Virus record (IMG/VR): IMGVR_UViG_2721755660_000006
Location: 1-55,157 of that record
Origin: a virus
Lineage: Duplodnaviria; Heunggongvirae; Uroviricota; Caudoviricetes
Length of the DNA: 55,157 nt
Direction: 5' to 3' (one strand)
How positions within the stretch are numbered: position 1 is the first letter of the stretch; the number at the start of each line of letters is the position of its first letter. The notes under the pieces are model-generated. The model made no database searches. It worked only from the letters and a program-made list of their open reading frames with translations, and had not been told where the DNA came from. The position numbers and the translations under genes were made by a program. Below are positions 1 through 52,052 of this stretch, piece by piece.

Positions 1-1446
1 ATGAGTATGTCATCCATACCGTCGTCCTCCCAATCCGGGAAGCTCTATGGCTGGGTCGAAAGAATTGGTAACAAGGTTCCCCATCCTTTTTTGCTCTTTA
101 TCTATTTGATAATCGTACTCATGGTGACGACGGCAATTTTGTCAGCCTTTGGCGTCAGTGCGAAAAACCCGACCGATGGTACGCCGGTGGTGGTGAAAAA
201 CCTGCTCAGTGTGGAAGGATTACACTGGTTTTTACCCAATGTGATTAAAAACTTTAGCGGTTTTGCTCCACTTGGAGCGATCCTGGCGCTGGTTTTAGGT
301 GCCGGCCTAGCGGAGCGCGTCGGCTTACTGCCAGCGCTAATGGTTAAAATGGCATCGCATGTTAATGCCCGCTACGCCAGTTATATGGTGCTGTTTATTG
401 CTTTTTTCAGCCACATTTCTTCCGATGCGGCGTTAGTGATCATGCCACCGATGGGTGCGCTGATTTTTCTGGCGGTGGGCAGGCATCCAGTTGCAGGTTT
501 ACTGGCCGCCATTGCAGGCGTAGGTTGCGGCTTCACGGCTAATTTACTGATTGTCACAACCGACGTGTTGCTGTCGGGGATCAGCACGGAAGCGGCGGCT
601 GCGTTCAATCCGCAAATGCACGTCAGTGTAATTGATAACTGGTATTTTATGGCCAGCTCCGTAGTCGTTCTGACGATTGTTGGCGGCCTGATAACCGACA
701 AAATCATCGAGCCACGGTTAGGTCAATGGCAGGGAAACAGCGATGAGAAACTGCAGACATTGACCGAAAGTCAGCGTTTTGGTTTACGCATAGCAGGTGT
801 CGTATCGCTACTTTTTATTGCTGCGATCGCGCTGATGGTGATCCCGGAAAACGGGATATTGCGCGATCCGATTAATCACACCGTGATGCCATCACCCTTT
901 ATTAAAGGTATCGTGCCACTAATCATTCTTTTTTTCTTTGTGGTTTCGCTGGCTTATGGCATCGCTACCCGCACAATTCGACGTCAGGCGGATTTACCGC
1001 ATTTAATGATTGAACCGATGAAAGAGATGGCGGGATTTATCGTGATGGTTTTTCCCCTCGCCCAGTTTGTCGCCATGTTTAACTGGAGCAACATGGGGAA
1101 ATTCATCGCCGTGGGGCTGACCGATATACTTGAAAGTTCAGGGCTTAGCGGCATCCCGGCGTTTGTCGGTCTGGCGTTGCTTTCCTCTTTCTTATGCATG
1201 TTTATTGCCAGCGGTTCCGCAATCTGGTCGATTCTGGCCCCCATTTTCGTACCAATGTTTATGCTACTTGGCTTTCACCCGGCATTTGCGCAAATCCTCT
1301 TTCGTATTGCCGACTCATCCGTATTGCCTTTAGCGCCGGTATCTCCTTTTGTTCCACTGTTTCTTGGATTCCTGCAACGCTACAAACCAGACGCAAAACT
1401 GGGTACTTACTATTCGTTAGTCTTGCCCTATCCGCTTATCTTTTGA
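1..1446 (+). CDS. abgT: AbgT-family p-aminobenzoyl-glutamate transporter (host gene, ORF starts at window position 1)
   Basis: 481-aa polytopic membrane protein; N-terminus MSMSSIPSSSQSGKLYGWVERIGNKVPHPF recognised as E. coli AbgT from memory; stop lies 70 bp before the attL core. Confidence 0.85.
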   Translation: MSMSSIPSSSQSGKLYGWVERIGNKVPHPFLLFIYLIIVLMVTTAILSAFGVSAKNPTDGTPVVVKNLLSVEGLHWFLPNVIKNFSGFAPLGAILALVLGAGLAERVGLLPALMVKMASHVNARYASYMVLFIAFFSHISSDAALVIMPPMGALIFLAVGRHPVAGLLAAIAGVGCGFTANLLIVTTDVLLSGISTEAAAAFNPQMHVSVIDNWYFMASSVVVLTIVGGLITDKIIEPRLGQWQGNSDEKLQTLTESQRFGLRIAGVVSLLFIAAIALMVIPENGILRDPINHTVMPSPFIKGIVPLIILFFFVVSLAYGIATRTIRRQADLPHLMIEPMKEMAGFIVMVFPLAQFVAMFNWSNMGKFIAVGLTDILESSGLSGIPAFVGLALLSSFLCMFIASGSAIWSILAPIFVPMFMLLGFHPAFAQILFRIADSSVLPLAPVSPFVPLFLGFLQRYKPDAKLGTYYSLVLPYPLIF

Positions 1447-47154: not shown

Positions 47155-47409
47155 ATGAGTATGCACATGATGAATGAAGCATGGAACGTAAAACTTAACA
47201 GCCCGATCCAAAAACTTGTCTTAATTGCGTTTGCAGAAAAGGCAGACAACAAAGGCCGCGCACATGCTTCACGCGAAGAGATCGCAAAAGTGTGCGAACT
47301 GCCACTGCATACTACTGTTGACGCATTAAATTCATTGATCCGCAAAGGATTCATTAAACGCGCTGACGAATACGGCGACATTTATGACATTGCATTGCCG
47401 GAGGAATGA
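47155..47409 (+). CDS. HTH DNA-binding protein in the Cro position (replisome-organiser-type winged helix)
   Basis: 84 aa; KLVLIAFAEKADNKGRAHASREEIAKVCELPLHTTVDALNSLIRKGFI; stop 3 nt before the next gene. Confidence 0.55.
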   Translation: MSMHMMNEAWNVKLNSPIQKLVLIAFAEKADNKGRAHASREEIAKVCELPLHTTVDALNSLIRKGFIKRADEYGDIYDIALPEE

Positions 47410-47412
47410 TCT

Positions 47413-48471
47413 ATGAAGTGGTTTAAGCATGATAGCGATGCGAACCGCGATGAAAAACTTCAAAACGTTTTATTAGATTATGGCCTGGAAGGGTACGGGC
47501 TTTATTGGTATTGCCTAGAACTAATAACTTATGACGTAGATCAGCACAATCTAACTTTTGACCTACGACATGACGCAAGAATAATTGCGCGAAACGTCGG
47601 ATCTACTGAAAAACGTATAGAAGAAATGATGAAATACTTCATCGAAATTGGTTTGTTTGAATGTTCTCAAGGCCACATAACTTGTTTAAAGTTATTGAAA
47701 AGGCTGGACCAATCAATGACTTCTAAAAGCGCTTACAGGGCCGCCATAAACACAGCGAAGGAGCAATTAAAATTAGAAAAGTTAATCAATCCAACACAAA
47801 AAGGTCATGATAGGGTCATGACCGGGTCAGGAAAGGGTCATGAATTAGAATTAGAATTAGAAGTAGAAAAAGAAAGAGAAAAAGATATATACACTTCGTG
47901 TATTGTCGAAAATGAACAAAAAATGGTCAATCAGGATGGCGTAAACGAAGCGGCATTGCGTTGCCTTGCCTTCTACAACGACAAGGCAGGATGCAAATGT
48001 CGTGATGCTAAGCCATTCGTAGAACTACTGACAGAAACAAAAACACGTAAAGCGTATACGGAGGATGAGATCACATTAGTGATTGAGTGGGCTTTAACCC
48101 AATGGCGTAGCCGTGGTGGAGTACCTAAGCCTATCAACATTTGCCGGGTAACTAAGTTTGATGGGTATTTGGCTGATGCTGAACAATGGCGCAAGCTATC
48201 AGCTACTGTAAACGCTGCCGACGTGGTGGAAGCATTTAACAGCACGTTTGACGGCCTGTTACCACCTGCCGAACTGGATCGGGATCTTGAACGCAAGATC
48301 TATGCGTTCACTGACTACCTGAAAGACAAAAGCATTAACGGCTTTGTCGCCTACTTCGAAACGTTCAAAAACACGGCTTCAGATTTTTACTTCGGCAATG
48401 GCTTCACTGCGACACTTGATTTTCTGCTTAAACCAAAAACGCTACGTGATACGCGCGCTGGCGTTCTTTGA
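47413..48471 (+). CDS. Replication initiation protein / replisome organiser (lambda O-like role)
   Basis: 352 aa; N-terminal MKWFKHDSDANRDEKLQNV...GLEGYGLYWYCLELI typical of phage replisome-organiser N-domains; internal iteron block. Confidence 0.7.
   Translation: MKWFKHDSDANRDEKLQNVLLDYGLEGYGLYWYCLELITYDVDQHNLTFDLRHDARIIARNVGSTEKRIEEMMKYFIEIGLFECSQGHITCLKLLKRLDQSMTSKSAYRAAINTAKEQLKLEKLINPTQKGHDRVMTGSGKGHELELELEVEKEREKDIYTSCIVENEQKMVNQDGVNEAALRCLAFYNDKAGCKCRDAKPFVELLTETKTRKAYTEDEITLVIEWALTQWRSRGGVPKPINICRVTKFDGYLADAEQWRKLSATVNAADVVEAFNSTFDGLLPPAELDRDLERKIYAFTDYLKDKSINGFVAYFETFKNTASDFYFGNGFTATLDFLLKPKTLRDTRAGVL
47795..47895. promoter_or_regulatory. Candidate replication origin: four GGGTCATGA-type iterons plus AT-rich repeat tract inside the organiser gene
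   Basis: AAGGTCATGATAGGGTCATGACCGGGTCAGGAAAGGGTCATGA followed by ATTAGAATTAGAATTAGAAGTAGAAAAAGAAAGAGAAAAAG. Confidence 0.55.
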
Positions 48472-48603
48472 CCAATCACGATCCGCAAAAATCCAAAATT
48501 ACCCACAAAACAACCTCATCAGCGAGCTAAATCGCATGGGGGCTACACTTGCTTACCTTTTTGCGATTAGCTTGTTATGGAGCGTTTCAGAGAGGATTTA
48601 GCT

Positions 48604-48705
48604 ATGAACGGTAAACGCATGTTCGCCCTGGCTTTCGCGATCGCGATGGCTATCGCTGTTAACGTCGCCTTGTTCGGCGGCTTATATCTACTAGTTAATC
48701 CATAA
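48604..48705 (+). CDS. Mini hydrophobic peptide (33 aa)
   Basis: MNGKRMFALAFAIAMAIAVNVALFGGLYLLVNP; GAGAGGA Shine-Dalgarno. Confidence 0.4.
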   Translation: MNGKRMFALAFAIAMAIAVNVALFGGLYLLVNP

Positions 48706-48866
48706 CTACCCTTCTACCTTAAAAATCGAAAATTAGCCACCTGATTGCGCTTCTGGCGCAAAAAAGACACTGCACCCTTACAAGTGGGTTACGCGGTGGA
48801 TTTTTGCGTTGTAGCGCGTTTTACGGAAAATAAATATACATTCTGTAAACCGGAGGAATTAACGTT

Positions 48867-49985
48867 ATGTCACAAAGAAAGATCAGCGATGAACAGTTAA
48901 TCGCTGAACATAATAACGGTCTGACGTATAAACAGATCGCAGAAAAATATGGCATGGCAAAACGCAACGTCGAACGCCTGGGCGCACGGTTGGCGAAACG
49001 CGGTTTAATATCCACGCGCCGCGCACCGGGTTTTGGCGTCAATGCTGAGTCATTGCTCGTCGATAAGGATGGCAATGTGATTATGCGCTGGATTAAAACA
49101 GCCCGTGACCGCGATGAAATGGAAATGCTAATGCAATCTGCTTGTGACGCCTTCACGGAAGAAATACCCCGCGCGGAGGCCGTGCCAGTGCCGGAAATTG
49201 ATTTTCAAAAAAGCCTGGCCCTTTATCCGGTATTCGATCTGCATATCGGGGCGCTTGCTCATAAAGCTGAATGCGGTGAGAGCTACGACACCGGGATCGC
49301 TGAACGCGTGCTAAATGACTTCTTCGACTACGCGGTAGGCGCTGCGCCAATGTCTGAAAAGGCTGTTTTGCTTCTCGGCGGTGATGTGCTTCACACTGAC
49401 GGCCTGTTACCAGTGACGCCATCAAGTAATCACGTTTTAGATTGTGATTCACGCTACGCAAAACTGGTTTATGTGGCGATCCGGTCGGTCCGGCGTGCGG
49501 TCGGGAAGATGTTACTAAATCATAAGGATGTCGAGATCCAGGTATTATCCGGTAATCACGACCAATCAGGTATGATCTGGCTACGTGCTGCGCTGGCGGC
49601 TTTTTACGAAGATGAACCGCGTGTGACGGTTGATGTGTCACCTGCTATCGTCCATCACACACAGTACGGCAAAACATTTCTTGCTTACCACCACGGGCAC
49701 ACTATCAAAAAGCCAGAAAATTTACTTTCTGCCTGCGTTTCTGACTGGCGGGAGGATTTCGGCAAGTCGTCGTCTGTTTACGCTCATTGTGGACACTGGC
49801 ATCACCAACGGCTGATTGAATCATCGTTGGGCGTTGTTGAGTACCACGGCACGTTAGCTGGCAAAGACGCTTATTCAACGAATGGCGGCTGGCGGTCGCG
49901 GCGGCTGGCTGCGGTAATAATTTACAGTCCTGATCATGGGGAAATCGGGCGCTTTGTTTATTACCCTGAATATTCCATTTTGTAA
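48867..49985 (+). CDS. Calcineurin-like metallophosphoesterase with N-terminal HTH-like domain (Mre11/SbcD-like motifs)
   Basis: 372 aa; motifs DLHIG, GGDVLHTDG, GNHD, HHGH, GHWHH; N-terminus LTYKQIAEKYGMAKRNVERL. Confidence 0.65.
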   Translation: MSQRKISDEQLIAEHNNGLTYKQIAEKYGMAKRNVERLGARLAKRGLISTRRAPGFGVNAESLLVDKDGNVIMRWIKTARDRDEMEMLMQSACDAFTEEIPRAEAVPVPEIDFQKSLALYPVFDLHIGALAHKAECGESYDTGIAERVLNDFFDYAVGAAPMSEKAVLLLGGDVLHTDGLLPVTPSSNHVLDCDSRYAKLVYVAIRSVRRAVGKMLLNHKDVEIQVLSGNHDQSGMIWLRAALAAFYEDEPRVTVDVSPAIVHHTQYGKTFLAYHHGHTIKKPENLLSACVSDWREDFGKSSSVYAHCGHWHHQRLIESSLGVVEYHGTLAGKDAYSTNGGWRSRRLAAVIIYSPDHGEIGRFVYYPEYSIL

Positions 49986-50003
49986 ACCGGAGGCGATGCC
50001 ATA

Positions 50004-51425
50004 ATGATAACCGAACAAGTAAACTCATTGCGGCAAGAAAGAGAATCAGCGGTTATCGGTGGCCTGCTGTTAGGTGGGCTTACTCCTAACGCGCAAGATG
50101 TTCTCGCTACGCTTGATCCTGAAGTGTTCACTATTCCGCTGTATAAGCGGGCTTTTGAAATTATCCGGGCGCAAGCCAGAAACAGAAATCTTATCGACGC
50201 CTTGCTGGTTGGTGATGAGATTGGCAACGAAAATTTTGTACCGCTGATGCAAACGGCGCGATCGTGTCCTTCTGCTGCCAATCTGAAAGGATATGCGCGA
50301 CTACTACAGGAAGAACACCAGCGGCGGCAAATGCTGGAACTAATGGAAGACATTCGCTACAAACTGGAAACGGGGACGCTTGAAGTCGTCAGGGAGACGA
50401 TGAAAGATTTTGATTCCCGGTATTCAAAATTAAAGGTAACAAAAGATCAAATTATCCCGGTGCTGTTGCGCGATGCGGTCCAGGAATACACGGAAGTGTT
50501 AAGTAAACGCATGGAGTGTGGCGTGAACTCTGACAACATCAAAACAGGGATTGACCCACTCGACGAAATGTTAGGCGGCATTAACGCTACTGATCTGGTG
50601 CTTATCGCCGGACGCCCAGGGTCTGGTAAATCGGCGTTGGCGTTGGCAATTGCCCGCGCGGCGGCTGAACGTCCATACCCTGGCGGCGAAGGTCAGCGGG
50701 TCGGCGTTTTGCTGTTCACGCTTGAAATGTCGCTCGATCAGATGACTGAACGTGCTATCGCTGGCGCTGGGAACTTATCAACGGATTGCCTACGTAATCC
50801 GGTAAAACTGGATGACGAAGGTTGGGCGCACGTCGCCCAGGGAATGAGTGCCCTTGCCGATCTCGATGTGTGGATTGTTGACGCATCGCAGTTAACGGTC
50901 GAGGAAATACGCGCCACCGTCGAACGGATGAAACAGGACCATCCTAACCTGGGGATGGTAATGATTGACTACATCGGGTTAATGAAGCTGGCTAAGGCCG
51001 AACGTCATGATCTCGCCGTAGGGCAATTGTCGTGGTCATTGAAAATGATGGCGAAAGAGTTGCGCGTGCCAGTGGCGGCGCTGGCGCAATTATCCCGCCG
51101 CGTTGAGGAACGACCGAACAAGCGCCCGAACAATTCTGATCTGCGTGATTCCGGTAATCTTGAACAGGACGCAGACCGGATCATCATGGTCTACCGCGAC
51201 GGCTACTACAACGAACAATCGGTTGCCCGCGAATATATGGAGATCATCGTTTCAAAAAACCGTCACGGGAAAACGGGGACTGTTTACCAGCGGTTTGACG
51301 ATAACGGCAACATCATCCCATGCGACCAGGCCCGCGCGGCGTCCGCTTGCATTCAGTCAATGCAACAACGTCCGGCGGCAAGTCGATTCTCCACACGAAA
51401 CAGCCAGAACAACGCATCTTTTTAA
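50004..51425 (+). CDS. Replicative DNA helicase (DnaB-like)
   Basis: 473 aa; Walker A GRPGSGKS, then MIDYIGLM and SQLSRRVEER motifs. Confidence 0.85.
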   Translation: MITEQVNSLRQERESAVIGGLLLGGLTPNAQDVLATLDPEVFTIPLYKRAFEIIRAQARNRNLIDALLVGDEIGNENFVPLMQTARSCPSAANLKGYARLLQEEHQRRQMLELMEDIRYKLETGTLEVVRETMKDFDSRYSKLKVTKDQIIPVLLRDAVQEYTEVLSKRMECGVNSDNIKTGIDPLDEMLGGINATDLVLIAGRPGSGKSALALAIARAAAERPYPGGEGQRVGVLLFTLEMSLDQMTERAIAGAGNLSTDCLRNPVKLDDEGWAHVAQGMSALADLDVWIVDASQLTVEEIRATVERMKQDHPNLGMVMIDYIGLMKLAKAERHDLAVGQLSWSLKMMAKELRVPVAALAQLSRRVEERPNKRPNNSDLRDSGNLEQDADRIIMVYRDGYYNEQSVAREYMEIIVSKNRHGKTGTVYQRFDDNGNIIPCDQARAASACIQSMQQRPAASRFSTRNSQNNASF

Positions 51426-51503: not shown

Positions 51504-52052
51504 ATGAGCATTGAACTTGAAGCAAAAATTATCAATATCCTTGAACTTGATGGCATCGCAACAATGCACCAGCTACGCCAGAAAACCGGATTATCAGCGG
51601 AATACGACGAAGCCGGATGCTTGCCGGAAACAGTTAAACACCTGATCGACACTAATCTGGTTGAGCGGGTGTATACATATTTTGGCCCGCGCCGCCGCTT
51701 GCTGGGCTATCGAATTAAATATTTATACGAACAACGACGCGAGCGTGTAGCCGCGTTATTTACTGACTACAACGTTAGAAAGCGAATGAGAGATATTAGC
51801 GCGGAAACTGGCATTCCGTGGAATTACCTTTCGCGCACGCTGCGTTTAATGGTGCTGGATGAAACGCTTTGCATAGATACCAATAAACACGGCCTTAATT
51901 TTTACTCACTGTTTAAACCTGGTCGCTTTGGTCACGCTAATGATCTCGCGTTTGATTTTGACAGCCGCCTGAACGAATACCGGAAAAATAACGGCCTGCT
52001 ACCGGATAAACCAGTATTTGAGATCGAAAAACTCAACGGGGAACGGGGTTAG
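51504..52052 (+). CDS. Hypothetical protein
   Basis: 182-aa ORF downstream of dnaB-like gene. Confidence 0.5.
   Translation: MSIELEAKIINILELDGIATMHQLRQKTGLSAEYDEAGCLPETVKHLIDTNLVERVYTYFGPRRRLLGYRIKYLYEQRRERVAALFTDYNVRKRMRDISAETGIPWNYLSRTLRLMVLDETLCIDTNKHGLNFYSLFKPGRFGHANDLAFDFDSRLNEYRKNNGLLPDKPVFEIEKLNGERG

Follow-up and report, generated by a model that had tools for sequence, protein, structure and literature searches.

A helix-turn-helix metallophosphoesterase of the PHROG 704 family between the replication initiator and dnaB of a MagusPhagus-type prophage

What does a calcineurin-like phosphoesterase do between the replication initiator and the replicative helicase of a temperate phage, and to which branch of its superfamily does it belong? 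The question is raised by the Caudoviricetes record IMGVR_UViG_2721755660_000006, analysed over its full stretch of 55,157 nucleotides (nt; hereafter the window), and by an open reading frame (ORF) of 372 amino acids (aa) on the plus strand at 48867-49985. An earlier reading of the sequence (the original prediction) had described this ORF as a metallophosphoesterase (MPE) that carries the motifs DLHIG, GDVLHTDG, GNHD and GHWHH behind an N-terminal helix-turn-helix (HTH) and that lies between an O-like initiator and DnaB. The protein and all of these motifs were found as described, and Pfam and PHROG matches agree with the identity of both flanking genes. We find in the gene a typical representative of a phage family that is widespread and already catalogued but functionally uncharacterised, and we tentatively favour, with slightly less than even confidence, the reading that its product is a DNA nuclease which depends on Mn/Mg, is targeted by its HTH and supports the replication or recombination of phage DNA.

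The gene, its catalytic domain and its N-terminal module

The ORF starts with ATG, stops with TAA and is preceded by a Shine-Dalgarno sequence (GGAGG, 48852-48856) located 10 nt 5' of the start codon. Its product is 100% identical to XNS39334.1 of Escherichia phage MagusPhagus (PP925836.1), which is annotated as "DNA repair exonuclease", and the 4.4 kb around the gene are 99.9% identical to the same phage. The PHROG 704 profile, also named "DNA repair exonuclease", matches residues 4-368 on profile positions 2-387 of 390 (E 5e-138, 461 bits). The ORF is therefore a real, full gene, and one that is already annotated in an identical deposited genome. Other members of PHROG 704 are named "putative phosphoesterase" or "winged helix-turn-helix domain-containing protein", and all of these names are automatic annotations.

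All five ordered MPE motifs (DxH, GDxx(D/H), GNH(D/E), H and GHxH) are present in the window protein, namely, DLHIG (D124/H126), GGDVLHTDG (G172, D173/H176/D178), GNHD (229-232), HHGH (H276/G277/H278) and GHWHH (G309/H310/H312). In an alignment of 23 sequences (A1), all of them are fully or almost fully conserved; in a second alignment (A2), of 57 representatives that are only 30-45% identical to the query and with a mean column identity of about 34%, their conservation is either complete or at least 90%. Such invariance in 57 sequences at this level of column identity argues for what is probably a working active site. Two further loops are conserved specifically within the family, VTPxSGHxLDxDxR (residues 183-196, after motif II) and DAYxxxGGxxSxR (residues 334-346, after motif V), and these probably shape the substrate site. 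An AlphaFold2 model built from 23 sequences, with predicted local distance difference test (pLDDT) values mostly of 80-95 in its core, comprises three N-terminal helices (8-44), a beta-hairpin (60-77), a helix (81-98) and an alpha/beta domain (114-365), and in this model the catalytic domain forms the double beta-sheet sandwich of the MPE fold.

Profile searches placed the relatives of the protein more readily than the protein itself. The Pfam Metallophos model gave no match to the window protein at E ≤1, and NCBIfam and Pfam together returned no MPE model for it, only weak HTH matches. Among the 57 relatives, 13 match PF00149 (Metallophos) and 11 match PF12850 (Metallophos_2), and P0267 (25.1 bits) and P0274 (22.5 bits) score above the Pfam cut-off of 21.5 bits. 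Through the alignment, the stretch matched in P0267 and P0274 corresponds to window residues 120-331, from motif I to past motif V, which places the motifs of the original prediction at the catalytic positions of the profile. The window protein is thus assigned to the superfamily, as a predicted member, from its motifs, its modelled fold and the relatives that pass the Pfam threshold. Sequence searches against the PDB, with the single sequence as well as with the profile, gave nothing significant, and a fold search against BFVD returned only uncharacterised relatives.

The superfamily fold and the core motifs are shared by Ser/Thr (or Tyr) protein phosphatases such as lambda NinI, and the nin region of lambda carries such an enzyme, so that a phosphatase is the first alternative to be weighed. 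Motif II of the window protein, however, reads GDVLHTDG and not GDxxDRG as in the PPP class, and PPP fold scores are clearly lower. Nor does the family profile align with NinI (probability 0.65%) in hhalign comparisons with single reference enzymes, which gave low probabilities throughout and inform only on the register of the motifs and on relative rank. The PPP class was set aside, and a protein phosphatase is extremely improbable; of the two families that the original prediction wished to see distinguished, the nuclease type is favoured over the Ser/Thr phosphatases.

The N-terminal HTH is less conspicuous in the window protein than in its relatives. In the former, all Pfam HTH matches lie below threshold (HTH_IclR at E 0.003 and others, approximately over residues 11-55). 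In many of the 57 relatives, the same segment is matched by HTH models, including Sigma70_r4_2 (in 9 of them, best E 1.5e-9), GerE (best E 2.4e-8), HTH_23 and similar models. The AlphaFold2 model places helices at residues 8-16, 21-28 and 32-44, and residues 1-58 have an isoelectric point of 10.6 and a net charge of +6.6. The proposed HTH fusion is backed by the matches in relatives and by the model helices, and the predicted N-terminal HTH is a family-wide feature. An intragenic mosaic was also seen. The allele of the P0115 prophage (L018 6001-7122), which stands in a synteny matching the window locus, shares 88-98% identity with the window protein from residue 1 to about residue 100 and only 32-68% beyond, the breakpoint at about residue 100 falling at the domain linker. 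The catalytic domain can thus be exchanged, whereas the N-terminal module stays with the phage group, which suggests that the N-terminal domain may recognise a phage-specific target, be it a site on DNA or a partner (for example, DnaB or the initiator).

Distribution and functional readings

By tblastn, the family was found in 2,044 of 50,697 phage records (about 4%), including phages of Escherichia, Klebsiella, Salmonella, Vibrio, Campylobacter, Flavobacterium and Rhodobacter, and an exhaustive HMMER scan retrieved 4,338 clusters (50% identity) at E ≤1e-3 and 909 at E ≤1e-30. Loci of the mEp021 type, in which the order is repressor, small HTH_36 protein, initiator, variable slot, phosphoesterase and dnaB, occur in 34 of 5,426 complete E. 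coli genomes, in 7 phage records and in about 40 IMG/VR contigs. In every locus of this type that was examined, the phosphoesterase gene lies directly 5' of dnaB, and the pair is intact even where the initiator has been replaced. In the T1-like Drexlerviridae (about 45 loci), it is the last gene of an operon with an SNF2 helicase, VRR-NUC and Dam, right before holin and endolysin. Among prophage-like loci of unrelated bacteria, it adjoins a Rep3-like initiator and a DNA methylase in Pantoea, a dNMP kinase and a Toprim/D5 primase-helicase in Planctomycetota and an SF2 helicase in Asaia, and in Myxococcales a DnaB-like gene is located about 4 kb away. Taken together, the synteny survey shows that a place among DNA-replication and modification genes is the norm of the family and not an oddity. 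The arrangement had been considered unusual, a view that is at odds with the frequency of PHROG 704 in phage genomes, with its fixed position beside dnaB in mEp021-type loci and with the precedent of Bxb1 gp47, a published phage MPE within a replication cluster (PMC11795197).

Two side observations were made in this survey. DNA methyltransferase genes recur as neighbours: Dam in the T1-like phages, an N6_N4 methylase that overlaps the end of the gene in Pantoea (L024), an adjacent DNA methylase in RcPescado (L010) and, in mEp021, an N4/N6 methylase a few genes 3' of the phosphoesterase. In addition, split or truncated family ORFs of about 100-260 aa were seen in Salmonella phage 36, phiJLA23, Jk06 and KpV79 (BFVD matches) and in the Asaia locus (L028 5956-7070); these may be frameshifts, endonuclease insertions or annotation artefacts, and the gene may be dispensable in some lineages.

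On the combined weight of the invariant motifs, the basic HTH, the enzymes nearest in fold and the DNA-metabolism genes found around the gene, we infer enzyme activity, DNA as the substrate and a role in replication or recombination. In the mechanism that we propose, the protein would be made alongside the initiator and DnaB from the early rightward operon, and its basic N-terminal HTH would target it to DNA or to a phage-specific partner. The calcineurin-like phosphodiesterase domain, with a binuclear metal centre (Mn2+/Mg2+), would then hydrolyse DNA phosphodiester bonds as an exo- or endonuclease that acts without a Rad50/SbcC ATPase. The processing of DNA ends, flaps or primers by this enzyme would allow phage DNA replication or recombination-dependent replication to proceed.

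Several points weigh against a DNA nuclease of this kind. The structural model is of moderate confidence (mean pLDDT 75.8), and both family-specific conserved loops are modelled poorly. The hhalign match to T4 gp47 is not significant (E 0.0024, probability 12%), and that to E. coli SbcD (E 0.024, probability 2%) aligns only GNHD. In several virulent phages, the neighbours of the gene are lysis or late genes and not replication genes; a position near lysis or late genes was seen in HK578, Vibrio 49E27-1, RcPescado, Thermus Lalka8 and Jerseyvirus T102. The HTH could serve regulation rather than substrate binding. Lastly, the literature on the family yielded only genome-annotation papers or nothing, with no experimental work found on any member; the paper on the mEp021 group does not discuss the phosphoesterase gene.

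If the enzyme is a DNA nuclease, its target might instead be the host chromosome and not intermediates of phage replication, and it would then serve host shut-off, nucleotide supply or the silencing of defence genes. This possibility is modelled on gp48 of the mycobacteriophage A10ZJ24, which is both a DNA nuclease and a phosphodiesterase. It degrades DNA in linear, plasmid and genomic form in vitro, attacks the DNA of the host in vivo and is required for overcoming host defence genes (PMC12287305). The host-DNA reading is in line with the abundance of the family, which is highest in virulent phages (T1-like, Jersey-like and Webervirus), and the dNMP kinase or nucleotidase genes that adjoin the gene in Thermus and Planctomycetota loci fit nucleotide salvage. 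However, A10ZJ24 gp48 lacks an HTH and comes from a different MPE clade (E 0.013, probability 3%), the gene of the window lies within the replication operon of a temperate phage, and nothing indicates how the phage's own DNA would be protected. We regard an attack on host DNA as quite improbable.

Alternatively, the substrate might be a small molecule, such as cyclic mono-, di- or oligonucleotide immune signals, Ap4A-type alarmones or 2',3'-cyclic phosphates, in which case the protein would be a counter-defence or signalling enzyme with an HTH for regulation or localisation. Both the fused basic HTH and the consistent presence of helicase, methylase, initiator and nuclease genes nearby argue for DNA instead. 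No PADLOC model matched, no literature was found that links the family to signal degradation, and the known anti-CBASS and anti-Pycsar enzymes use other folds. A small-molecule phosphodiesterase is, in our view, unlikely, and the processing of phage DNA remains the reading that we prefer.

The replication module and the repeated leader

The left end of the window (1-1446, plus strand) encodes an AbgT-family transporter (Pfam E 2.6e-197) without PHROG match. Since this is a host gene, the window is an integrated prophage of the MagusPhagus type with a bacterial flank on its left, and not a free phage genome. The features of the replication module are collected in Table 1. Four GGTCATGA iterons with 11-nt spacing (47803-47843) lie inside the initiator gene and are directly followed by an A+T-rich run (47843-47868) with a AATTAGAA-type repeat, and this origin-like array falls in the linker region of the initiator (peptide ...GHDRVMTGSGKGHELELELEVE...). 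The label "replication module" is justified by this predicted lambda-like origin, which is located within the initiator gene itself. At the other side, dnaB begins 18 nt 3' of the phosphoesterase gene in the same orientation. A promoter and terminator scan of the module gave nothing above shuffled expectation.

Table 1. Coordinates of the phosphoesterase gene, its domains and the neighbouring features in the window
Feature	Coordinates	Strand	Evidence
Complete winged HTH (wHTH)-metallophosphoesterase gene, PHROG 704 family	48867..49985	+	ORF; MagusPhagus identity; PHROG 704 profile
Predicted N-terminal HTH segment, residues 1-58, strongly basic	48867..49040	+	Weak Pfam HTH matches; HTH matches of relatives; model helices; charge
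Linker module, residues 59-113: beta-hairpin 60-77, helix 81-98, low-confidence linker	49041..49205	+	Model secondary structure; pLDDT
Predicted calcineurin-like metallophosphoesterase domain, residues 114-368, motifs I-V: D124/H126; D173/H176; N230/H231; H276; H310/H312	49206..49970	+	
Small HTH_36 protein similar to the N-terminal part of replication initiators; the module begins with this gene	47155..47409	+	Pfam HTH_36 E 1.8e-7; PHROG 4617 E 8e-19
O-like replication initiator	47413..48471	+	Lin1244_N and several replication-initiator PHROGs
DnaB-type replicative helicase	50004..51425	+	Pfam DnaB_C E 1e-75 and DnaB N-terminal domain
Left copy of imperfect direct repeat/leader, including Shine-Dalgarno GGAGG	48829..48856	+	
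Right copy of imperfect direct repeat; encodes MPE C-terminus P-E-Y-S-I-L-stop and supplies the dnaB Shine-Dalgarno	49966..49993	+	

Two neighbouring regions deserve a brief description. The gap between the initiator and the phosphoesterase gene (48472-48866) is a variable moron slot, which is nearly empty here, holding small dubious ORFs (48577-48705 and 48745-48900) and flanked by a 12-nt perfect inverted repeat (48484-48495 / 48797-48808). In relatives (L005-L008, L004 and L018), the slot contains zinc-ribbon, DUF559, Ant, BRO, KilAC or Rha genes. Directly after dnaB, an ORF on the plus strand (51504-52052) encodes a protein of 182 aa with weak wHTH/MarR-type matches and a weak match to a Ren-like exclusion PHROG; it is kept at the same position in all relatives, where it is annotated as Lrp/AsnC or MarR.

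The position of the phosphoesterase gene bears on a further alternative. Helicase loaders of the lambda P or SPP1 G39P type sit between initiator and helicase, and no loader was recognised in the module by Pfam or PHROG. The protein might therefore be mainly a DNA-binding regulator or adaptor whose MPE domain is a sensor or scaffold; a transcription factor, or an accessory factor for helicase loading or for the origin, would be examples. Its N-terminal HTH resembles sigma-70 region 4, LuxR and wHTH regulators, and within the phage group it is the catalytic domain that is swapped and the N-terminal domain that is kept. Every metal-binding and catalytic residue, however, is strictly invariant over thousands of sequences, which is not expected of a scaffold, and the family is equally conserved in T1-like phages, which have no DnaB. 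We consider a mainly regulatory or adaptor role very unlikely. A bolder proposal, which we hold to be doubtful, is that a wHTH specific to the phage group tethers an exchangeable DP1/Mre11-like nuclease domain to the assembly of origin, initiator and DnaB, making the protein an obligatory replisome accessory in the helicase-loader slot. Were this the case, primer editing or removal, or the opening of DNA ends for the switch to late replication, could be its job, and phages would have evolved stand-alone "replication phosphoesterases" on at least two occasions, in the PHROG 704 family and in Bxb1 gp47.

The leader that the gene was said to share with dnaB proved to be part of a longer repeat. 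The 13-mer TGTAAACCGGAGG occurs exactly twice in the window (48844-48856 and 49981-49993), each time 10 nt 5' of a start codon. In 55 kb, about 23 pairs of exact 13-mer repeats are expected by chance and 136 repeated 13-mers were observed; chance would not be expected, however, to place both copies alike before neighbouring start codons. The similarity spans about 28 nt with one indel (aTAAATATaCATTcTGTAAACCGGAGG versus cTGAATATtcCATTtTGTAAACCGGAGG), and the P-E of the C-terminal peptide encoded by the right copy is conserved in the family. In relatives, the dnaB-proximal copy alone is exact, and the upstream leader has diverged. An HNH_3 homing-endonuclease gene is inserted exactly at the junction between the MPE gene and dnaB in mEp021 (L004 7820-7860) and in P0115-type prophages (L018 7118-7645), and in mEp021 a displaced PEFSIL-stop remnant lies 3' of the HNH gene. 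In the simplest reading of these observations, the imperfect direct repeat on either side of the gene stems from recombination at a module junction that doubles as a homing site. The leader could instead be a common translational operator. Given that relatives keep only the dnaB-proximal exact copy and that the right copy is coding, an origin by recombination or duplication is more likely than such an operator, if not proven.

Comparison with known phosphoesterases

Of the "Mre11-SbcD motif set" claimed in the original prediction, the motifs themselves are present and motif II of the family is GDxxH as in Mre11. The set is generic for the superfamily, though, and the attribution to Mre11/SbcD did not hold. 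The family profile could be aligned by hhalign with T4 gp47, an SbcD/Mre11 homologue, across 184 columns in which motifs I, II, III and V keep their register, and this alignment and the form of motif II count in favour of a nuclease. A comparison of the profile with the PDB reached Thermotoga maritima SbcD/Mre11 at E 0.3-1, which is not significant. In the model, the chain ends with the MPE core, and the C-terminal capping domain is absent; the PHROG 704 protein has an N-terminal HTH instead, which sets it apart from Mre11, SbcD and T4 gp47. No Rad50/SbcC/gp46-type ATPase was found among the window ORFs of at least 330 aa (tail, head, portal, terminase, initiator, MPE, DnaB, integrase and host transporter), and no Rad50/SbcC-type ATPase was seen among the annotated neighbours of relatives. 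True membership in Mre11/SbcD was rejected on these three grounds, i.e., non-significant similarity, no capping domain and no Rad50/SbcC partner. Membership among PolD DP1 and the eukaryotic polymerase B-subunits was rejected as well, with no OB-fold before the MPE domain (only three helices, a beta-hairpin and a helix) and an identity of about 13%; the large window ORFs showed neither a polymerase gene nor a DP2-type partner.

Lambda NinI shares the MPE superfamily with the window protein and also comes from a temperate coliphage, but it is encoded in the nin region and not in the slot between initiator and dnaB, and the PPP DRG motif is absent from the PHROG 704 protein. The protein is best described as an independent clade on the phosphodiesterase/nuclease side of the superfamily. 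Its counterparts in Drexlerviridae, Webervirus, Dhillonvirus (HK578 gp59), Jerseyvirus and the mEp021 group belong to the same PHROG 704 family. The members from virulent phages are 42-66% identical to the window protein and alike in architecture, motifs and length, so that they differ from the window gene in genomic slot only and in nothing structural.

The observation in the window is thus an ordinary one, and its value lies in the size of the uncharacterised family and in the tractability of the setting. About 4% of the phages sequenced to date carry a member of this family, whose active site is perfectly conserved; among them are T1-like, Webervirus and Jersey-like phages that serve in therapy, and metagenomes add thousands of clusters. 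The mEp021-type prophages offer a tractable temperate setting, in which the gene lies between initiator and DnaB and natural domain-swap alleles exist. Such a setting bears on how common it is for phages to depend on a stand-alone phosphodiesterase or nuclease dedicated to DNA replication, a need shown so far for mycobacteriophage Bxb1 only.

The Cluster A mycobacteriophage phosphoesterases, to which Bxb1 gp47, L5 gp54 and A10ZJ24 gp48 belong, differ from the window protein in several respects. They are about 255 aa long, have motif I at residue 10 and lack an N-terminal HTH. Moreover, Bxb1 gp47 doubles as a directionality factor of a serine integrase, whereas the integrase of the window phage is of the tyrosine type (Phage_integrase domain in relatives). 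A specific homology to the Bxb1 gp47 family was rejected, since the profile-profile comparison (A2 versus A3) gave E 0.013 and a probability of 3.4%, with motifs III-V only. As the Cluster A family is not specifically related and has no HTH, its parallel with PHROG 704 is one of function and not of membership. The window protein would thus be analogous and not homologous to Bxb1 gp47, and, by this analogy, the Cluster A phosphoesterase is its nearest functional precedent.

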